Shown one piece after another: positions 4,369 through 16,878 of a stretch of DNA of 22,328 nt (the first letter of the stretch is position 1; every line of letters starts with the position of its first letter). Below the pieces are notes generated by a model. The model was given only the letters and a program-made list of their open reading frames with translations, ran no database searches and was not told where the DNA came from. A program made the position numbers and the translations under genes. The stretch lies in the IMG/VR virus record IMGVR_UViG_648861009_000003; one strand, given 5' to 3'. The DNA comes from a virus (taxonomy: Duplodnaviria; Heunggongvirae; Uroviricota; Caudoviricetes).

Positions 4369-4814
4369 NNNNNNNNNNNNNNNNNNNNNNNNNNNNNNNN
4401 NNNNNNNNNNNNNNNNNNNNNNNNNNNNNNNNNNNNNNNNNNNNNNNNNNNNNNNNNNNNNNNNNNNNNNNNNNNNNNNNNNNNNNNNNNNNNNNNNNNN
4501 NNNNNNNNNNNNNNNNNNNNNNNNNNNNNNNNNNNNNNNNNNNNNNNNNNNNNNNNNNNNNNNNNNNNNNNNNNNNNNNNNNNNNNNNNNNNNNNNNNNN
4601 NNNNNNNNNNNNNNNNNNNNNNNNNNNNNNNNNNNNNNNNNNNNNNNNNNNNNNNNNNNNNNNNNNNNNNNNNNNNNNNNNNNNNNNNNNNNNNNNNNNN
4701 NNNNNNNNNNNNNNNNNNNNNNNNNNNNNNNNNNNNNNNNNNNNNNNNNNNNNNNNNNNNNNNNNNNNNNNNNNNNNNNNNNNNNNNNNNNNNNNNNNNN
4801 NNNNNNNNNNNNNN
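4369..4814. other. Run of 446 N (assembly/scaffold gap)
   Basis: Contiguous N characters; both flanks are copies of the same gam sequence. Confidence 0.95.
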
Positions 4815-11006: not shown

Positions 11007-11254
11007 CGGTTTTCATCGGTAACACACCATGTAATCTAGCAGTCAGCTTAGAAATAGGAGCGGCAGTTAAAGATTTTTCAGTTAGTAGAAAATTACTGTT
11101 ATTGCAGGGATCTAATCACCGGAGAGTCGTTCCATTTGTCTTATGATTACCTGAAGTCCGTTAGTTCGTTGGTAATCACCGTTTTTGTTAGAGAAGTAAG
11201 CATCGCTGACAAAATATTCTCAACGATGCCTGCTTTATTGCTACTACAAATTAA

Positions 11255-12756
11255 TTAAATTGCATCTGCAAACTCTGGGGTTTTTCGCTCAGGTATAATT
11301 GATGAGTTGCTGTTGTCACTTTTTTTATTTTCATGATTACGAATAGCCAATGACTCATTAAAGTCTTTTGCGACTGCTGTCTCAATAAATTCAATTTCTG
11401 AATCAGAGTGTTTTTTAACAGCTTCTTTGATCTCATCCAGAGTAACATAGAAAAACTCTTTTCTACGATTTACAAGATTGACTCTCTTTTTATCGAAGAC
11501 ATCATGTAGTTTTTTTCTAATGATGGAGCGTCCTCCGAATAAATCATGGCATGTACATCAAAAATAAAAGGAACAGATGCATCACCGAGCTCATTTACAC
11601 GGTCTTGCGGATCAAGACGTCGTGTCATGCCTATTTTATAAACATTCTCCCCAAAAGAACCTATGTTCGAAATAATATAAACATGACCTTGTTTGGTTTG
11701 TTGTGCCATGGATAATGCTCTTTGATGCTTTGATTCAGCCTGCGACAAACTCTGTTCTAGTTCGGCAATGCGATTTTCGAGGCGCTGCTTCATGTCACCA
11801 GTAACTTTTTCCATTTCCTTTCTTGCAGCTTCAATTGCTTTTTTATAACGGCGCTCTTCTGCCTCTGCGTCTTGCATGGCCTTTTCTATTTCTCGTTGTG
11901 CACGCTCCTCCTCTCTCATTTGTGCCCTTATTTCTGCCTGTTCTTCTTTTTCTTTCTGTTTTTGCTCACGATATTCATGGGTAAGCCACAATTCCTCAAG
12001 TTTTTTATTGAGGTATTTAGTGTTTATATATATGTGATTTTGCTCGTTTAGTTTATTTATGGCCTCAAATGCCTTTGTGATGCGTTCTTCCATTTTAGTG
12101 ATGTTTTTCCACGTGCAATTGCTAATTGCAGCATCACATTCATTATTAAATGCTCTAGTAGTTAGCCTGATATTTCTGTCTGTCATTTTTTTACCCTCTG
12201 CTCGAGAGCCTTCAACAGTCCATTGGGTTGTACAATATACTGCGCCAGAGTGGGTTTTATCCCGCAGCATTAATTTCTGTTCATCCCTGATGGATTTTAT
12301 TTTGTTTTTAAATTGCTCTGAATCTTCAAAATTAAAATGAGGTTCGTAAAATCCTAGTTCGGCTAGCTCAACATCTTCTGAATAAATAGAAATTTGCCTT
12401 ACTAGTTTATCATATATTTCTTTCTTCTCTTTATAAGTTCTTCTTAGCTCTTGGATTTGTTTATTGATACCATCCATTTTTTCAATGGTGTTTGTTAGTT
12501 CATTATTGGCATTTTCTTTTACTTTTAGGGATTCTTCTTTTATTATGGAGCATTCTTGCTCTGTTTTCTCAATAAGCTTCTTACATTCTTCTTCTACATT
12601 AAAATAATCTGCAAAGCGAGATTTGTATTCTTCATTTTTTTGATTGCTATCACTTAATTCTAATTGTATTTTTTTGATGCGTTTGATTGCAGCTATATAA
12701 AGAACAAGAACAACCAATAAAAATATGATTGCAAGTAATAGAGGAGTTTGAGTCAT
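11255..12756 (-). CDS. DUF4041/T5orf172 (GIY-YIG-like)-family protein with N-terminal TM helix and long coiled-coil; reading frame broken at a T7 homopolymer (11510..11516)
   Basis: The 428-aa ORF (11470..12756) contains GHVYIISNIGSFGENVYKIGMTRRLDPQDRVNELGDASVPFIFDVHAMIYSEDAPSL; the family-typical C-terminus LHDVFDKKRVNLVNRRKEFFYVTLDEIKEAVKKH... continues in the -1 frame to a stop at 11255. N-terminus LLLAIIFLLVVLVLYIAAI is hydrophobic; the gene is strongly AT-rich. Confidence 0.75.
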
Positions 12757-13065
12757 TCGTGCTATTCCTTACGGACAATTTAAGACGTTTTGTATTAAAT
12801 CCTGTTCAATGTGTATGCGGGTGATTGCTACCGCTTACAATCTTCATAATTATCAGTTAGATAGACTCGCTAGTAAATAATTTCATTTTTTGCAATATTC
12901 TTATTGAATATTTCAATTTATGAAATGAACTCTTTATCCTTTCAAGGTGAAAGGTTTCTTCTTCGGAAATATTTGCTCTCGTGTGACGTATAAAGACCTT
13001 TGATTTTCAAAAATCAGTAGGGAATAATATAGTTACTGTCGGCCTGAACACCCGGTGGTGGGGTT

Positions 13066-13155
13066 GCGCTAAACGGGGACGTTTATGCGCACACACAATC
13101 CAAACTCTCATCTCCATTCACAGATGCAGAAATGCACCTACGATTTTTTACATTC
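13066..13155. repeat. Direct repeat copy 1 (~90 bp, about 92% identical to 14999..15088)
   Basis: gcgctaaacggggacgtttatgcgcacacacaatccaaactctcatctccattcacagatgcagaaatgcacctacgattttttacattc. Confidence 0.9.
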
Positions 13156-13246
13156 GGTGTTTTACTTCGACAGCCAGAATTGGGAGTCTCTATTCGTCTG
13201 GCGGCTAAAGGTGATATGGAAATCGTTATGTTTTGGCCTGAGGTAG
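13085..13246 (+). CDS. Small ORF (53 aa) sharing an SD and N-terminal ~20 aa with the ylcH-like ORF
   Basis: GGGGAC SD followed by ATG; MRTHNPNSHLHSQMQKCTYDFLH... parallels [23 protein letters not shown] of the second repeat copy; could be a duplicated gene start rather than a functional gene. Confidence 0.3.
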   Translation: MRTHNPNSHLHSQMQKCTYDFLHSVFYFDSQNWESLFVWRLKVIWKSLCFGLR

Positions 13247-13568
13247 TTGTAACTGTTGTAGCAGCTATGGATGTGATCATCATGGTGTCCATTTACTGGG
13301 GTTGACGACATGATTTATCCGGCGCTATATTCTGTGCGTTGCCGCAAAATCGGCACACGGGATTGGCGTCCCGGGATACTACTCAACGCATACCGCGTTA
13401 AGCGGTTTTTTTGTGCGCTAAGCACGGCTATGCCCAAATTATGGTGGGCTGTGTGAGGGCTTCTTCGGAAGCGCCGGGTTTGAGTAGCCGGTTACGCCAA
13501 CCTTACACAGTTCACCACCAGTCGATTGGCGTCGTTGGTGGTGATGGTTAACCTGATGAGGTGATACT

Positions 13569-14177
13569 ATGACTACTCAATTAGCATTCCACAAAACGAC
13601 GTTTACCCCGATTTGCCACAATAACAGAATTTGGCTTACTGCCACTGAAGTTGGTTTAGCACTGGAATATGCGGACGATAAAGCAGTTCAGCGCATTTAC
13701 TCTCGGCACTCAGATGAATTCACAGATATGATGACAAGGGTGGTCAAAGTGACCACCCCTCGTGGAATGCAGGAGTCTCGAGTATTTAGCCTTCGCGGAG
13801 CCCATTTGATCGCCATGTTTGCTCGTACTCCTGTGGCCAAAGAATTCCGCCGCTGGGTTCTGGATATTCTCGATCGAGAAGTTCAACAATCCCCAATCAC
13901 AAAACAATTCACTGATAACGAACTTTGCACACTCGCCTGGTTATGGCGAGCAAGTGATACGATGTTAACCGCCTGCCAGAACGTTACGCCCCTTCTTCAG
14001 GTCGCAGAGCATCGCGAAGCAGGTAGATTCACTTCAATCGAACAAGAATATCCTCGGATACTCAACAGGGCGCGAGAAATCCTTGCCAGAGAAACGGCGC
14101 ATGTAAAATTCCAACCGTGGCAGGATGATAAGTGGAGTCGTGTGTTACCATATTTCCGTCAGAATCTGTTGCAATAA
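13569..14177 (+). CDS. Bro-N / P22 AR N-terminal domain protein (Roi/antirepressor-like)
   Basis: 202 aa; N-terminal IWLTATEVGLALEYADDKAVQRIYSRH...SRVFSLRGAHLIAMFARTPVAKEFRRWVLDIL fits the Bro-N/AntA-type domain pattern. Confidence 0.75.
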   Translation: MTTQLAFHKTTFTPICHNNRIWLTATEVGLALEYADDKAVQRIYSRHSDEFTDMMTRVVKVTTPRGMQESRVFSLRGAHLIAMFARTPVAKEFRRWVLDILDREVQQSPITKQFTDNELCTLAWLWRASDTMLTACQNVTPLLQVAEHREAGRFTSIEQEYPRILNRAREILARETAHVKFQPWQDDKWSRVLPYFRQNLLQ

Positions 14178-14194
14178 AGTCACTAGTTAGAAAT

Positions 14195-14238
14195 ACTGCC
14201 AGCATTCTGCGATGACGGAAGTGCTGGCATTTTTTTTG
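14195..14238 (+). terminator. Rho-independent terminator after the Bro-N gene
   Basis: ctgccagcat...gtgctggca stem followed by tttttttt, 20 nt after the stop codon. Confidence 0.5.
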
Positions 14239-14412
14239 GTAATGTGCGAGTCCATTTCATAAAATACGGGTACTGGAACTGGACGATATAATCTAAAAGA
14301 TACCATTATCAGTAGCATTAAAATCGCTATGTGCCGATACGGATATAAATTATATTGATTGTTCACATACCTTATTGGATATTACTGAGGGGTGTTTATA
14401 TAAGGTGTAACG

Positions 14413-14937
14413 ATGATGTGGAACTTTGACAGTGCCGACTTAAGTGCAATAGCAGCAGGCATTTCTGCGTTTGGCACATTAGCCGCAGCGGGGTCGGCGC
14501 TTGCAAGTTGGTGCACGTCAAAAAAAGCGCTGCAGCTACAAAATAGAGTTTACCTTTATGAGTCTTTAAAGGCTTGCGCTGAGAGAGCCAATTCATCAGC
14601 TAAAGATAAGCGCGGATCTGAATGGAGCGTTAATGATGCAGCGGATATCATCAGGTGCCTAGTACGGGCGATGGAGCTCATCAAGCAGGATAGCCAGCAG
14701 AAAGAAGGTAATCAGGCATTAATGTTGAAACAGTACTTTGTTAATCTGCTAATAATGGAACTGTACGAGGAAGTTCATAACGGTGATGCGGCTGATTCTG
14801 TTTTTAAAAGTACGGAACCTACACAAGTACTTGATAACTTATGGAGCAAATGGCAGGAGGCTATAGCTTTTTTGATATTTGGAATTACCCAGTTGCGACT
14901 GAGGAAGACTTGGCAGACTAATTTTCAGCACATTTGA
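14413..14937 (+). CDS. Unknown 174-aa protein with an N-terminal hydrophobic (membrane-anchor-like) segment
   Basis: ORF with its own upstream AT-rich promoter-like region after a terminator; residues ~11-34 (LSAIAAGISAFGTLAAAGSALASW) are hydrophobic; no family recognised. Confidence 0.6.
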   Translation: MMWNFDSADLSAIAAGISAFGTLAAAGSALASWCTSKKALQLQNRVYLYESLKACAERANSSAKDKRGSEWSVNDAADIIRCLVRAMELIKQDSQQKEGNQALMLKQYFVNLLIMELYEEVHNGDAADSVFKSTEPTQVLDNLWSKWQEAIAFLIFGITQLRLRKTWQTNFQHI

Positions 14938-14998
14938 TTTCCAATAATCAACCAGCCATAATCATGCCATTGGAGCTTGAACAACTCCGGTGACTTCT

Positions 14999-15088
14999 GC
15001 GCTAAACGGGGACGTTTATGCGCACATACAATCCAAACTCTCTTCTCCCTTCACAGATGCAGAGATGCACCTGCGATTTTTTGCATCC
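14999..15088. repeat. Direct repeat copy 2 (~90 bp)
   Basis: gcgctaaacggggacgtttatgcgcacatacaatccaaactctcttctcccttcacagatgcagagatgcacctgcgattttttgcatcc. Confidence 0.9.
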
Positions 15089-15119
15089 AGCGTTTGACCT
15101 CTGCGGAGGTGAAGCGTGA
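15018..15119 (+). CDS. ylcH: Small ORF (33 aa), ylcH-like
   Basis: SD plus ATG within repeat copy 2; [33 protein letters not shown]; sits directly upstream of ybcN as ylcH does in DLP12 (order recalled from memory). Confidence 0.4.
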
Positions 15120-15571
15120 ACCTCCCACAAGACGGCATCAAATTGCATCGTGGTAACTTCACCGCTATCGGCCAGCAGATCCAGCCTTATCTGGAGGAAG
15201 GCAAATGCTTTCGCATGGTGCTTAAACCGTGGCGTGAGAAACGCAGTCTTTCCCAGAATGCACTCAGCCACATGTGGTACAGCGAAATCAGTGAATACCT
15301 CATCAGCAGGGGTAAAACGTTCGCCACTCCAGCTTGGGTAAAAGATGCTCTCAAACACACATATCTCGGTTATGAAACCAAAGACCTGGTTGATGTCGTA
15401 ACCGGTGAGATCACCACTATCCAGTCGTTACGCCATACCTCCGATCTTGATACCGGAGAGATGTATATCTTCCTGTGTAAGGTTGAAGCCTGGGCGGTGA
15501 ATATTGGCTGCCACCTGACTATTCCGCAGAGCTGCGAGTTCCAGCTGCTGCGCGACAAGCAGGAGGCGTAA
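15116..15571 (+). CDS. ybcN: NinB-family recombination protein (YbcN-like)
   Basis: 151 aa with a GTG start; first gene of a tightly overlapping nin operon; the [16 protein letters not shown] region resembles the lambda NinB SLDQN motif. Confidence 0.75.
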
Positions 15572-16383: not shown

Positions 16384-16878
16384 TGTTTGAGTTTAATATN
16401 NNNNNNNNNNNNNNNNNNNNNNNNNNNNNNNNNNNNNNNNNNNNNNNNNNNNNNNNNNNNNNNNNNNNNNNNNNNNNNNNNNNNNNNNNNNNNNNNNNNN
16501 NNNNNNNNNNNNNNNNNNNNNNNNNNNNNNNNNNNNNNNNNNNNNNNNNNNNNNNNNNNNNNNNNNNNNNNNNNNNNNNNNNNNNNNNNNNNNNNNNNNN
16601 NNNNNNNNNNNNNNNNNNNNNNNNNNNNNNNNNNNNNNNNNNNNNNNNNNNNNNNNNNNNNNNNNNNNNNNNNNNNNNNNNNNNNNNNNNNNNNNNNNNN
16701 NNNNNNNNNNNNNNNNNNNNNNNNNNNNNNNNNNNNNNNNNNNNNNNNNNNNNNNNNNNNAGAACTTCTTCGCCACCGCTGGGGGCGTCTGCGCTTATAT
16801 CGTTTCCCCGGCTCTGTTTTGACCGATTACCGAATACTGAAGAATTACGCCAAAACACTGACAGGAGCAGGAGTATGA
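16380..16878 (+). CDS. ylcG: ylcG-like small gene split by the N-gap (5' part 16380..16399, 3' part 16761..16878)
   Basis: The 5' flank encodes MMFEFN and the 3' flank encodes [38 protein letters not shown]; joined by about 3 nt they would reconstitute a 46-aa protein matching DLP12 YlcG as I recall it. Confidence 0.6.
16400..16760. other. Run of 361 N (assembly/scaffold gap)
   Basis: Contiguous N characters; the flanks are the two halves of ylcG. Confidence 0.95.

Follow-up and report, generated by a model that had tools for sequence, protein, structure and literature searches.

Lambdoid phages are mosaic. Modular-evolution and moron-accretion models describe conserved linker or boundary sequences in their genomes, together with moron slots.

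Antirepressor modules resembling the one studied here have been described in two other settings. The IsrK-orf45(STnc1160)-AnrP module of the Salmonella prophage Gifsy-1 has been characterized experimentally. There, the read-through transcript is the trans target of IsrK, whose action switches on translation of orf45 and AnrP (PMC4825925). The module is located downstream of antQ (PMC4825925). The immI region of P1 and P7 contains c4, icd and ant. The repeats have a relative of their own in a short leader gene that precedes orf151/ybcN and is named orf33 in phage 82 and ylcH in DLP12. The phage 82 record (X92588) annotates putative -35 and -10 elements, and its 'possible regulator-binding site' matches the hairpin called H1 below. 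The phi80 record annotates the arms of our hairpin H2 as an inverted repeat, IR4.

We analyzed the window, a 22,328-nucleotide stretch of DNA (IMG/VR record IMGVR_UViG_648861009_000003) that represents an E. coli lambdoid prophage at the argU/DLP12 site. The phage 82 and DLP12 records contain a single copy of the leader, whereas the window contains two. The sequence analysis makes it likely that a duplicated nin leader flanks an antirepressor cassette, with one copy (copy B) a functional ylcH/orf33 leader of ybcN, the other (copy A) an old, decaying and truncated 5' leader fragment, and the cores of both serving as crossover points for swapping. The locus is an ordinary and well-documented example of known lambdoid phage mosaicism, and the repeat-bracketed cassette itself leaves current understanding unchallenged. 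Its only potentially new element is the leader, which is absent from Rfam and the searchable literature.

Two copies of a leader unit bracket the cassette

A repeat search of the whole window returned a single direct-repeat family. Its two copies, at 13065-13168 (copy A) and 14998-15101 (copy B), are 104 nt long, identical at 93 of 104 positions (89%) and spaced by 1933. Over 13065-13155 the identity is 84/91, or 92%, and the ~90-bp repeats of 92% identity described in a sequence-only reading of this DNA are therefore real. The longest perfectly identical block between the copies is 13065-13093, 29 nt. With up to three mismatches allowed, the window has exactly two occurrences of the 21-nt core, compared to none expected from 100 shuffles. 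Both copies contain GGGGA and an ATG, and their ORFs (13085-13246 in copy A, 15018-15119 in copy B) begin with MRT[HY]NPNS..SQMQ[KR]CT.DFLH, which confirms the Shine-Dalgarno sequence, start codon and shared ylcH-like ORF start noted earlier. Weaker homology, which the earlier reading overlooked, is found ~65 bp further upstream of each core. The full units are therefore 13000-13168 (unit A) and 14933-15119 (unit B), and a complete unit measures ~190 bp. Their features and the gene to the left are as follows.

11254..12756, minus strand: PD-Lambda-1 defence gene (DUF4041 plus MUG113), left neighbour
13000..13064, plus strand: upstream part of unit A, with TTGATT at 13000-13005, a 17-nt spacer and AATAAT at 13023-13028
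13035-13059, plus strand: hairpin H1 of unit A, ACTGTCGG (13035-13042), loop CCTGAACAC (13043-13051) and CCGGTGGT (13052-13059)
13065..13168, plus strand: core of copy A, with H2 at 13066-13090, the GGGA loop at 13076-13079 and ATG at 13085
14933..15119, plus strand: unit B, complete nin leader, with the core repeat at 14998-15101
14934-14962, plus strand: promoter-like site of unit B, TTGATT (14934-14939), 17-nt spacer, CATAAT (14957-14962)
14968-14992, plus strand: H1 of unit B
14999-15023, plus strand: H2 of unit B, with the GGGA loop at 15009-15012 and ATG at 15018
15018-15119, plus strand: ylcH ORF, 33 codons, overlapping the ybcN start
15056-15087, plus strand: H3 of unit B
15090-15117, plus strand: H4 of unit B, predicted to sequester the ybcN Shine-Dalgarno sequence and GUG start
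15116..15571, plus strand: ybcN, which opens the nin operon; start codon GTG and ylcH stop overlapping in GTGA

The ORF in copy B is the orthologue of K-12 ylcH (b4588), and ybcN starts inside it at 15116. This agrees with the earlier proposal that the second copy leads into ybcN as ylcH does in DLP12. Like phage 82 orf33 and DLP12 ylcH, it is located before orf151/ybcN and has 33 codons, with 90-95% identity at the DNA level. The order of the nin operon is ybcN-ninE-ybcO-rusA-ylcG-quuD.

The nin leader is conserved and structured

In most lambdoid phages and prophages the leader is present once, directly before the first nin gene, which is either ybcN or NinB. The unit was found ahead of ybcN in 80/80 YbcN-selected loci. 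It precedes YbcN at a fixed offset in 104 cases and a true NinB (Pfam E = 2e-45) in 40. A promoter-like site is present in 151 of 159 unique units. The leader ORF is 29-33 codons long, mostly 31-33, and in 138 of 148 unique leaders it is open and ends in ATGA or GTGA. The pattern-collected loci were chosen through the 21-nt core, so the invariance of the core in them is built in; the unbiased sample is shallow and consists of E. coli only.

Two hairpins are strongly conserved as structures. The arms of H1 are 91.9% paired, compared to 12-49% when slid. Six of its eight pairs have changed on both sides, and its covariation score was reached by 0/500 shuffles. H2 occurs in 11 stem versions around an invariant GGGA loop and is 99.9% paired, against 10-56% for slid arms; the start codon is located 4-7 nt into its 3' arm. 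Pairing in H2 was counted from the loop as anchor, as the MAFFT/RNAalifold alignment mis-registered its arms. H4 is found in three covarying versions. In the window, copy B folds better than shuffled sequences (z = -3.7), as does its H4 (z = -3.3).

These features suggest how the leader may work. A promoter-like TTGATT-17-CATAAT is followed by the 5' hairpin H1 and then by H2, which has the Shine-Dalgarno sequence in its GGGA loop and would bury the start codon. H4 would hide the Shine-Dalgarno sequence of the next gene, whose start is overlapped by the stop of the leader ORF. The sequence has what is expected of a translational-coupling leader: an open ORF, a stop/start overlap and the next Shine-Dalgarno sequence within a predicted structure. 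We infer from conservation that the promoter is active and that the leader is translated and coupled to the gene behind it. Its translation would open H4 and thereby couple translation of ybcN or NinB to that of the leader.

No Rfam 15 family matched 13000-13168 or 14933-15119, either at the gathering threshold or at E <= 5. We also searched for a pairing partner of the H1 loop. The complement TTGTTCAGG has eight matches in the window with one mismatch, compared to 5.6 expected, which is no excess. The possibility that H1 is a boxB/nut-like element was rejected, since by eye its loop CCUGAACAA is unlike the 5-nt GNRA-like boxB loop.

The unit lies between ren and the first nin gene, just downstream of ren, which is the place of tR2 on the established lambda map. 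The repeats might be insulating terminators, analogues of tR2 that only N-modified RNA polymerase would pass and that would otherwise halt read-through from upstream moron or defence genes; this role would account for the conservation of the repeat. A scan gave a weak 5-bp terminator-like match with a T-run in copy B (15058-15075), and the aligned copies have a T-rich run after the conserved block. However, the scan returned three terminator-like sites where 2.3 are expected by chance, and in the minimum-free-energy fold the U-run is paired inside H3 and leaves no free tail. The run is interrupted in most variants, for example as ATTTTCTG. H3 lacks covariation support: the search pattern dictated its 5' arm, and substitutions in the 3' arm often break pairing. 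The element also lies inside a conserved ORF that appears to be translated. We consider this explanation quite unlikely, and prefer a leader whose structures act on translation.

A literature search on ylcH function, phi80 IR4, and sRNA or transcription-start evidence near ybcN found nothing relevant. The covarying hairpins, the sequestration of the Shine-Dalgarno sequence and the association with both YbcN and NinB were worked out here and do not come from the literature. The structured leader is a candidate new RNA family. More tentatively, ylcH/orf33 and the ~85 bp upstream of it may be a widespread and undescribed cis-regulatory leader of the nin/Q operon, with a sigma-70 promoter of its own, a conserved CCUGAAC loop on its 5' stem-loop, a hairpin that gates translation of the leader peptide and obligatory coupling to YbcN/NinB; its duplicate would place the hydrophobic ORF and the antirepressor module described below under the same input. 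If so, such phages would have a PR/N-independent, post-transcriptionally gated route to expression of the nin genes and possibly Q.

The interval contains an antirepressor module and a cargo slot

The interval between the two units is itself a mosaic, composed of a spacer ORF, an IsrK/C4/Ant module and a separately exchangeable cargo slot.

13169..13296, plus strand: spacer, seen only with copy A, containing most of a small hydrophobic ORF
13216-13305, plus strand: small hydrophobic ORF, 29 aa, MEIVMFWPEVVVTVVAAMDVIIMVSIYWG, phrog_4612
13302..13331, plus strand: isrK/C4/ant promoter-like site, TTGACG-18-TATATT, 10/12
13340..13412, plus strand: IsrK-type sRNA, Rfam RF01394, 58.7 bits (gathering 50)
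13437..13522, plus strand: C4-type antisense RNA, Rfam RF01695, 74.8 bits (gathering 45), full-length match 1-87
13569..14177, plus strand: antirepressor-type gene, 202 aa, Pfam Bro-N (PF02498) and P22_AR_C (PF10548), PHROG anti-repressor Ant, with corresponding RefSeq annotation
14197..14237, plus strand: strong intrinsic-terminator hairpin and U8 tail, marking where the conserved ant module ends on the right
14238..14929, plus strand: variable cargo slot, here with the gene for a 174-aa protein
14413-14937, plus strand: 174-aa protein, phrog_1779, unknown function

The Bro-N gene recognized in the sequence-only reading is present, and the additional P22_AR_C domain assigns its product to the antirepressors by sequence family. 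IsrK and C4, both above their Rfam gathering scores, were overlooked in that reading, and the RefSeq records examined do not list them among their annotated features.

The module has the same order as that of Gifsy-1: IsrK with a terminator, a C4-like RNA and a Bro-N-type antirepressor. The isrK terminator is at 13392-13412. Unlike in Gifsy-1, the module is located in the nin region, between ren/PD-Lambda-1 and ybcN, and follows a truncated ylcH leader and the hydrophobic ORF. Over the C4 region, an ORF (13411-13551) stops 17 nt before the ant ATG, without an AUGA overlap. From its sequence, the antirepressor is predicted to be under IsrK/C4 antisense-RNA control.

The window also resembles immI of P1 and P7. 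It shares the C4 match, and upstream of it the IsrK element is the counterpart of the a1/b1 target of C4 systems, with an a1/b1-like RF03163 match of 39.6 bits that is below the gathering score of 46.7. The 10-mer GAUUGGCGUC is located at 13361-13370 within the IsrK element, upstream of C4, and again at 13524-13533. The second, b2-like site precedes the ant ribosome-binding site and is separated from the ant ATG by 36 nt. A direct reading of the sequence shows the 10-mer to be complementary to ACGCCAA in the C4 loop. In contrast to immI, no icd homologue was identified in the window, and the host is a lambdoid prophage rather than a P1-type plasmid prophage.

Homology in other lineages supports these boundaries. 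In versions of the module that lack a core, homology begins at ~13297, and in other lineages it stops at 14159-14215, the right end of the ant module. In other lineages the cargo position is occupied by HEPN and a partner, by an 84-aa ORF or by other genes. The 174-aa cargo protein of the window had been described as an unknown membrane-anchored protein. It has no match in Pfam, PADLOC or PDB sequences and is indeed of unknown function, but its N-terminal hydrophobic stretch is only a borderline membrane helix (Kyte-Doolittle 1.59).

Copy A is a truncated leader under relaxed constraint

The core of copy A contains the first ~24-28 codons of the ylcH-like ORF, after which the ORF is broken. 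Its fold is no better than that of shuffled sequences (z = -0.6), and its 3' half is relaxed. Copy A has private substitutions at positions conserved among the functional copies. In four copy-A lineages, each with its own, they fall within or beside a block that 78/80 B copies keep exactly. The idea that each repeat is a portable promoter and translation-initiation module fits the unit in general, but is weakened for copy A by the relaxed constraint on its 3' half.

The same joint between the core of copy A and the spacer is found in lineages that are ~80% identical. The joint is thus old and does not reflect a recent insertion. It must originally have been made by an illegitimate or unequal join. 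The duplication would have arisen once, most likely by unequal or illegitimate crossover of two misaligned lambdoid genomes, joining the 5' fragment in copy A to the hydrophobic-ORF spacer, followed by the IsrK/C4 antirepressor module and then the cargo slot. In most lineages examined, a truncated ylcH 'pseudogene' indicates where the antirepressor module begins on its left side.

Selection could also have kept copy A as a functional 5' duplicate (promoter, H1 and H2) that drives or insulates the hydrophobic ORF and the antirepressor module, a role compatible with that of a recombination anchor. The -35 and -10 elements with their 17-nt spacing, H1 and H2 are kept in aligned copy A units across lineages. 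The exception is IdasGreatGrand (L003), where the H2 loop is GGTG and ATA replaces ATG, so that the start is lost. The core is 89-94% conserved, compared to ~80% for the adjoining spacer. Instead of decaying freely, the core could have kept some function or undergone gene conversion, and gene conversion with B-type units can by itself explain the higher identity. The spacer ORF always co-occurs with copy A and stays in frame across a 6-nt indel, but in one O157:H7 strain (L009) it is cut short by a premature stop, and the ORF of copy A runs on into non-conserved frames. Partial unit copies precede a different, Q-like gene in one locus (L141), a further point in favor of a function. On the other hand, the ant module has its own promoter-like site, whose -35 box contains the stop codon of the hydrophobic ORF, and the module exists without copy A in three loci (L029, L089 and L155). 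Together with the poor fold, this makes a selected function of copy A improbable, though less so than the terminator explanation, and we favor a decaying leader fragment.

Empty sites and breakpoints indicate recombination at the repeats

A simulated product of cassette deletion was matched by 46 E. coli genomes, and the full two-copy arrangement was found in 112. The 40 empty-site matches listed are each one uninterrupted piece with 100% coverage and 96.9-98.8% identity. The closest of those listed is 98.8% identical to the window, which gives no sign of recent excision in the lineage of the window. The single copy at the empty sites is a hybrid, type A at the left and type B from column 95 on. 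The upstream half of unit A is of the sequence type associated with PD-Lambda-1 and is identical to that in the empty-site genomes; PD-Lambda-1 travels with this half-unit and flanks the empty-site alleles on their left as well. Instead of having arisen by deletion, the empty site may be the ancestral state.

Breakpoints are located at the edge of the core. Homology is lost at exactly 13065 in six contigs (L165, L176, L178, L195, L231 and L082), which match the window at 98-100% rightwards from this position and have unrelated left flanks. One of them, L165, matches at 99.3-100% from the cassette through ybcN. In an empty-site locus (L006), mismatches number 4/1546 to the left of the unit and 25/1289 to the right, a step in divergence from 0.26% to 1.9%, or ~7-fold, across the unit. 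The empty sites, the breaks at 13065 and the divergence step together indicate that the repeats act as anchors for homologous recombination.

Since the duplication, the near-identical cores would have been used for such exchanges, probably through RecA or phage Exo/Bet. A crossover in a core would give a cassette-bearing right arm a new left arm, and a crossover between copies A and B would delete the cassette and produce the empty-site alleles observed. The window itself looks recombinant. It appears to join a PD-Lambda-1 left arm, as in the empty-site genomes, to a cassette right arm within 13065-13093.

These results support the earlier interpretation of the repeats as a recombination boundary. 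The repeat recurs: most lambdoid phages and prophages have it once, ahead of ybcN or NinB, and several phages that otherwise differ have it twice, on either side of the same antirepressor module. The cassette is polymorphic between single copies. A module boundary is well supported by the breakpoints at the core edge. The interpretation needs refining on two points: the 1.9-kb interval is a composite rather than one cassette, and the joint at copy A does not stem from a recent insertion.

Direct repeats that bracket a discrete segment with precise empty sites might also indicate a recently inserted mobile element, with the repeats as target-site duplications or attachment sites. This is effectively refuted. 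The repeats are 104 nt long and just 89% identical, no transposase, integrase or terminal inverted repeats are found between or next to them, and the joint at copy A is old. The interior of the cassette is itself mosaic, and the supposed target is a complete functional unit that is single in most phages. A search found no tRNA genes in the window, which leaves a tRNA/tmRNA attachment site without support. Such an insertion is extremely improbable, and homologous exchange at the cores would explain the same empty sites.

The leader unit is probably a duplicated lambdoid linker

The unit has the properties of lambdoid linkers. It is short, conserved and fixed in map position, with breakpoints at its edge and variable cargo beside it. 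It is found before YbcN or NinB with many different left neighbours. Unlike the usual linkers, it is duplicated within one genome, and can therefore also mediate intramolecular deletion. It also appears to be a structured regulatory leader rather than neutral DNA. One short conserved sequence may thus be both the regulatory head of an operon and the crossover point at which cassettes are gained, lost and re-partnered. The locus shows, cleanly and in numbers, how accessory modules are traded among lambda-like prophages.

The traded cassettes carry an antirepressor switch that may affect prophage induction, next to defence genes (PD-Lambda-1 here; HEPN and NACHT in relatives). Across phages, the cargo beside the unit includes PD-Lambda-1, NACHT, an alpha/beta hydrolase and HEPN, and in K-12 emrE/ybcK/ybcL/ybcM. 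For annotation, the interval from ren to ylcH/ybcN is a predictable cargo hotspot. In the window, the PD-Lambda-1 gene is frameshifted, and its ORF ends at 11470 (428 aa).

The repeat pair and the antirepressor module

The window is a lambdoid prophage of E. coli that occupies argU, the integration site of DLP12. In the region of the repeats, strain 118UI and some 110 further complete genomes carry essentially the same sequence. A repeat search of the window found a single long direct repeat of 104 nt, 13065-13168 (copy A) and 14998-15101 (copy B), with 89% identity. This confirms the direct repeats of ~90 bp reported by the sequence-only reading, and 84 of 91 positions are identical over that length. 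Perfect identity extends over at most 29 nt (13065-13093), and the window has two occurrences of a 21-nt core, compared to zero expected by chance. Both copies contain the GGGGA Shine-Dalgarno sequence, ATG and ylcH-like opening (MRT[HY]NPNS..SQMQ[KR]CT.DFLH) seen earlier. Copy B leads into ybcN as ylcH does, also as described: its 33-codon ORF (15018-15119), the orthologue of K-12 ylcH and phage 82 orf33, overlaps the ybcN start. Two masked runs of N are located at 4369-4814 and 16400-16760. Because the second masks ylcG and the beginning of quuD, any ORFs called in it are artefacts.

Features of the repeat region
11254-12756, minus strand, PD-Lambda-1 anti-phage defence gene, DUF4041/MUG113 (PADLOC E about 1e-168)
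13216-13305, plus strand, conserved hydrophobic ORF of 29-31 aa, MEIVMFWPEVVVTVVAAMDVIIMVSIYWG (Kyte-Doolittle 2.27; phrog_4612, unknown function)
13340-13412, plus strand, IsrK sRNA with its own terminator (58.7 bits, gathering score 50)
13437-13522, plus strand, C4 antisense RNA (74.8 bits, gathering score 45)
13569-14177, antirepressor gene (ant), Bro-N/P22_AR_C
14197-14237, strong terminator closing the ant module
14413-14937, plus strand, 174-aa protein (phrog_1779, match to residues 1-154 only)

The Bro-N gene placed inside the cassette by the earlier reading is the antirepressor gene. Directly upstream of it are IsrK and C4, which that reading did not mention and for which the matching RefSeq record lists no feature. 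The 10-mer GAUUGGCGUC, at 13361-13370 in IsrK, recurs at 13524-13533 ahead of the ant ribosome-binding site and is complementary to the C4 loop. By its sequence, IsrK/C4/ant looks like a switch of the P1 immI / Gifsy-1 IsrK-orf45-AnrP type, the latter experimentally characterised in Salmonella (PMC4825925).

The hydrophobic ORF is located between copy A and the isrK promoter, with its stop codon inside the isrK -35 box. An alternative call gives 57 aa (13132-13305). The frame is kept across a 6-nt in-frame indel, and in one O157:H7 strain (L009) a TAG interrupts it prematurely. The ORF could encode a small membrane peptide or toxin.

Probable recombination at the repeats

The cassette is present in some genomes and absent from others. 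A search with a simulated deletion product gave matches in 46 E. coli genomes, of which 40 were listed, each as a single uninterrupted piece with 100% coverage and 96.9-98.8% identity. The full two-copy arrangement is found in 112 genomes. At the empty site lies one hybrid copy, whose left side is type A and which switches to type B just inside the core. In six viral contigs, the match to the window (98-100%) starts exactly at 13065 and runs rightwards, and their left flanks are unrelated. The empty-site locus L006 differs from the window at 4 of 1546 positions left of the leader unit and 25 of 1289 right of it. Locus L165, 99.3-100% identical to the window over the stretch from the cassette to ybcN inclusive, has no homology to the left. 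These mismatch patterns suggest that the window combines, through recombination, a left arm carrying PD-Lambda-1 and a right arm carrying the cassette, with a putative joint within 13065-13093. Plausible catalysts of recombination at the repeats are Exo and Bet, both encoded in the prophage. Those tests proposed with the sequence-only reading that were run support its main interpretation, recombination at a module boundary. The phenomenon, lambdoid mosaics that arise by homologous recombination at conserved sequences and carry an immI-type antirepressor, is of a known kind. The duplicated-leader arrangement of this locus appears undescribed.

Origin and state of copy A

The joint between the copy A core and the adjoining spacer is shared by lineages whose spacers are only about 80% identical, indicating that the duplication is old and most likely has a single origin. 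The ant module occurs without copy A in three loci (L029, L089, L155), where homology begins at ~13297, at the isrK promoter. Since the spacer has no homologue in these core-less versions, unequal or illegitimate crossover is the most likely origin. Insertion of a mobile element is excluded, as the 104-nt repeats are divergent, no recombinase gene lies between or beside them and the joint is old.

Copy A folds no better than shuffled sequence (z = -0.6), compared to z = -3.7 for copy B. Each of four copy-A lineages has private substitutions within or beside a block that is exact in 78 of 80 unbiased B copies, and one has lost the ATG. However, most lineages retain the promoter-like site and the hairpins H1 and H2 in copy A, and conservation is higher in its core than around it. 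The copy may therefore have kept some function or have undergone gene conversion, which is the main rival to decay of copy A. In O157:H7 G5295 (L009 3419-3496), RefSeq labels copy A 'incomplete hypothetical protein, missing C-terminus'. Pseudogenes of this truncated ylcH type could serve to mark the left boundary of the IsrK/C4/Ant module.

The structured nin leader

The most novel element of the locus is a structured nin leader. In alignments with single-copy phages, the unit extends beyond the repeat to a length of about 190 bp. A promoter-like site, TTGATT-17-CATAAT, is found in 151 of 159 unique units (spacer of 17 nt in 148). The palindrome TTGAT-N8-ATCAA, which includes the -35 hexamer, is located at 14934-14951 and 13000-13017 and in 102 of the 159 units. 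A protein might bind there, over the promoter-like element.

The loop of hairpin H1, CCUGAAC, is conserved, and H1 pairing is 91.9% compared to 12-49% with the partner slid. Six of 8 pairs changed on both sides, and 0 of 500 shuffles attained the covariation score of H1; the many G-U changes on one side only suggest an RNA of the plus strand. Hairpin H2 has 11 stem versions around an invariant GGGA loop (99.9% paired, 10-56% when slid), and the start codon sits 4-7 nt inside its 3' arm. Hairpin H4, in three covarying versions, is predicted to sequester the Shine-Dalgarno sequence of the next gene. The small ORF is open, its stop overlapping the next start codon as ATGA/GTGA, in 138 of 148 unique leaders. 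The peptide is variable outside SQMQKCTC.

The unit lies upstream of ybcN in 80 of 80 loci chosen solely by YbcN protein, and in other phages precedes true NinB at the same offset. In loci gathered by pattern, core invariance is built in by selection on the 21-nt core; H1, H2, H4 and the promoter-like site lie outside this pattern. The unit has no match in Rfam, and a literature search found no paper on it. GenBank records of phages 82 and phi80 mark only a putative promoter/regulator site and an inverted repeat. From the conservation, we infer that the unit would gate and translationally couple expression of the first nin gene. There is at best weak support for a tR2-like terminator: the terminator scan hit in the repeat is at chance level, and the U-run is paired inside hairpin H3 in the predicted fold and interrupted in most unit variants.

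A cargo hotspot between ren and ylcH

The cassette interior is itself mosaic. Homology to other lineages ends after ant (14159-14215) and restarts at ~14930, the start of the second unit. The 174-aa gene occupies this separate, variable slot after the ant terminator. Its product had been called an unknown membrane-anchored protein. It has no Pfam, PADLOC or PDB match, and its N-terminus is only borderline hydrophobic. A 1-nt indel near the 3' end gives it a different C-terminus from the 169-aa protein in 118UI (RefSeq). Alternative occupants include HEPN and its partner (O157:H7), an 84-aa ORF (W24) and other ORFs (phage IdasGreatGrand).

The whole ren-to-ylcH interval is a cargo hotspot (window 11007-14930; L244/L245 of K-12; L008, L009, L002 and L007). 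It contains PD-Lambda-1 in the window and in some other genomes, emrE, ylcJ, ybcK, ybcL and ybcM in K-12, NACHT in W24, an alpha/beta hydrolase in Lambda_4C10, HEPN and its partner in O157:H7, and an HD-domain protein adjoining PD-Lambda-1 in strain 2 HS-C. The PD-Lambda-1 gene of the window is frameshifted near 11470-11500 relative to 118UI (428 aa compared to 500 aa), and so may be inactive.

Copies of the unit elsewhere

The exact 21-nt core is also found on a 1.1-kb Kocuria sabuli contig (L016) and a 3.2-kb contig of an Oxalobacter MAG (L040). For the core of an enterobacterial phage element these are unrelated taxa, and contamination or mis-binning is likely. An IMG/VR contig (L141, 6932-11919) carries the 3' half of the unit in two partial copies, separated by 4.1 kb. 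Between them are a tail-fibre-like gene, a 620-aa protein with a C-terminus that by eye resembles a colicin-type HNH DNase, and a small immunity-like ORF. The gene that follows the second copy is Q-like (271 aa), rather than ybcN or NinB.
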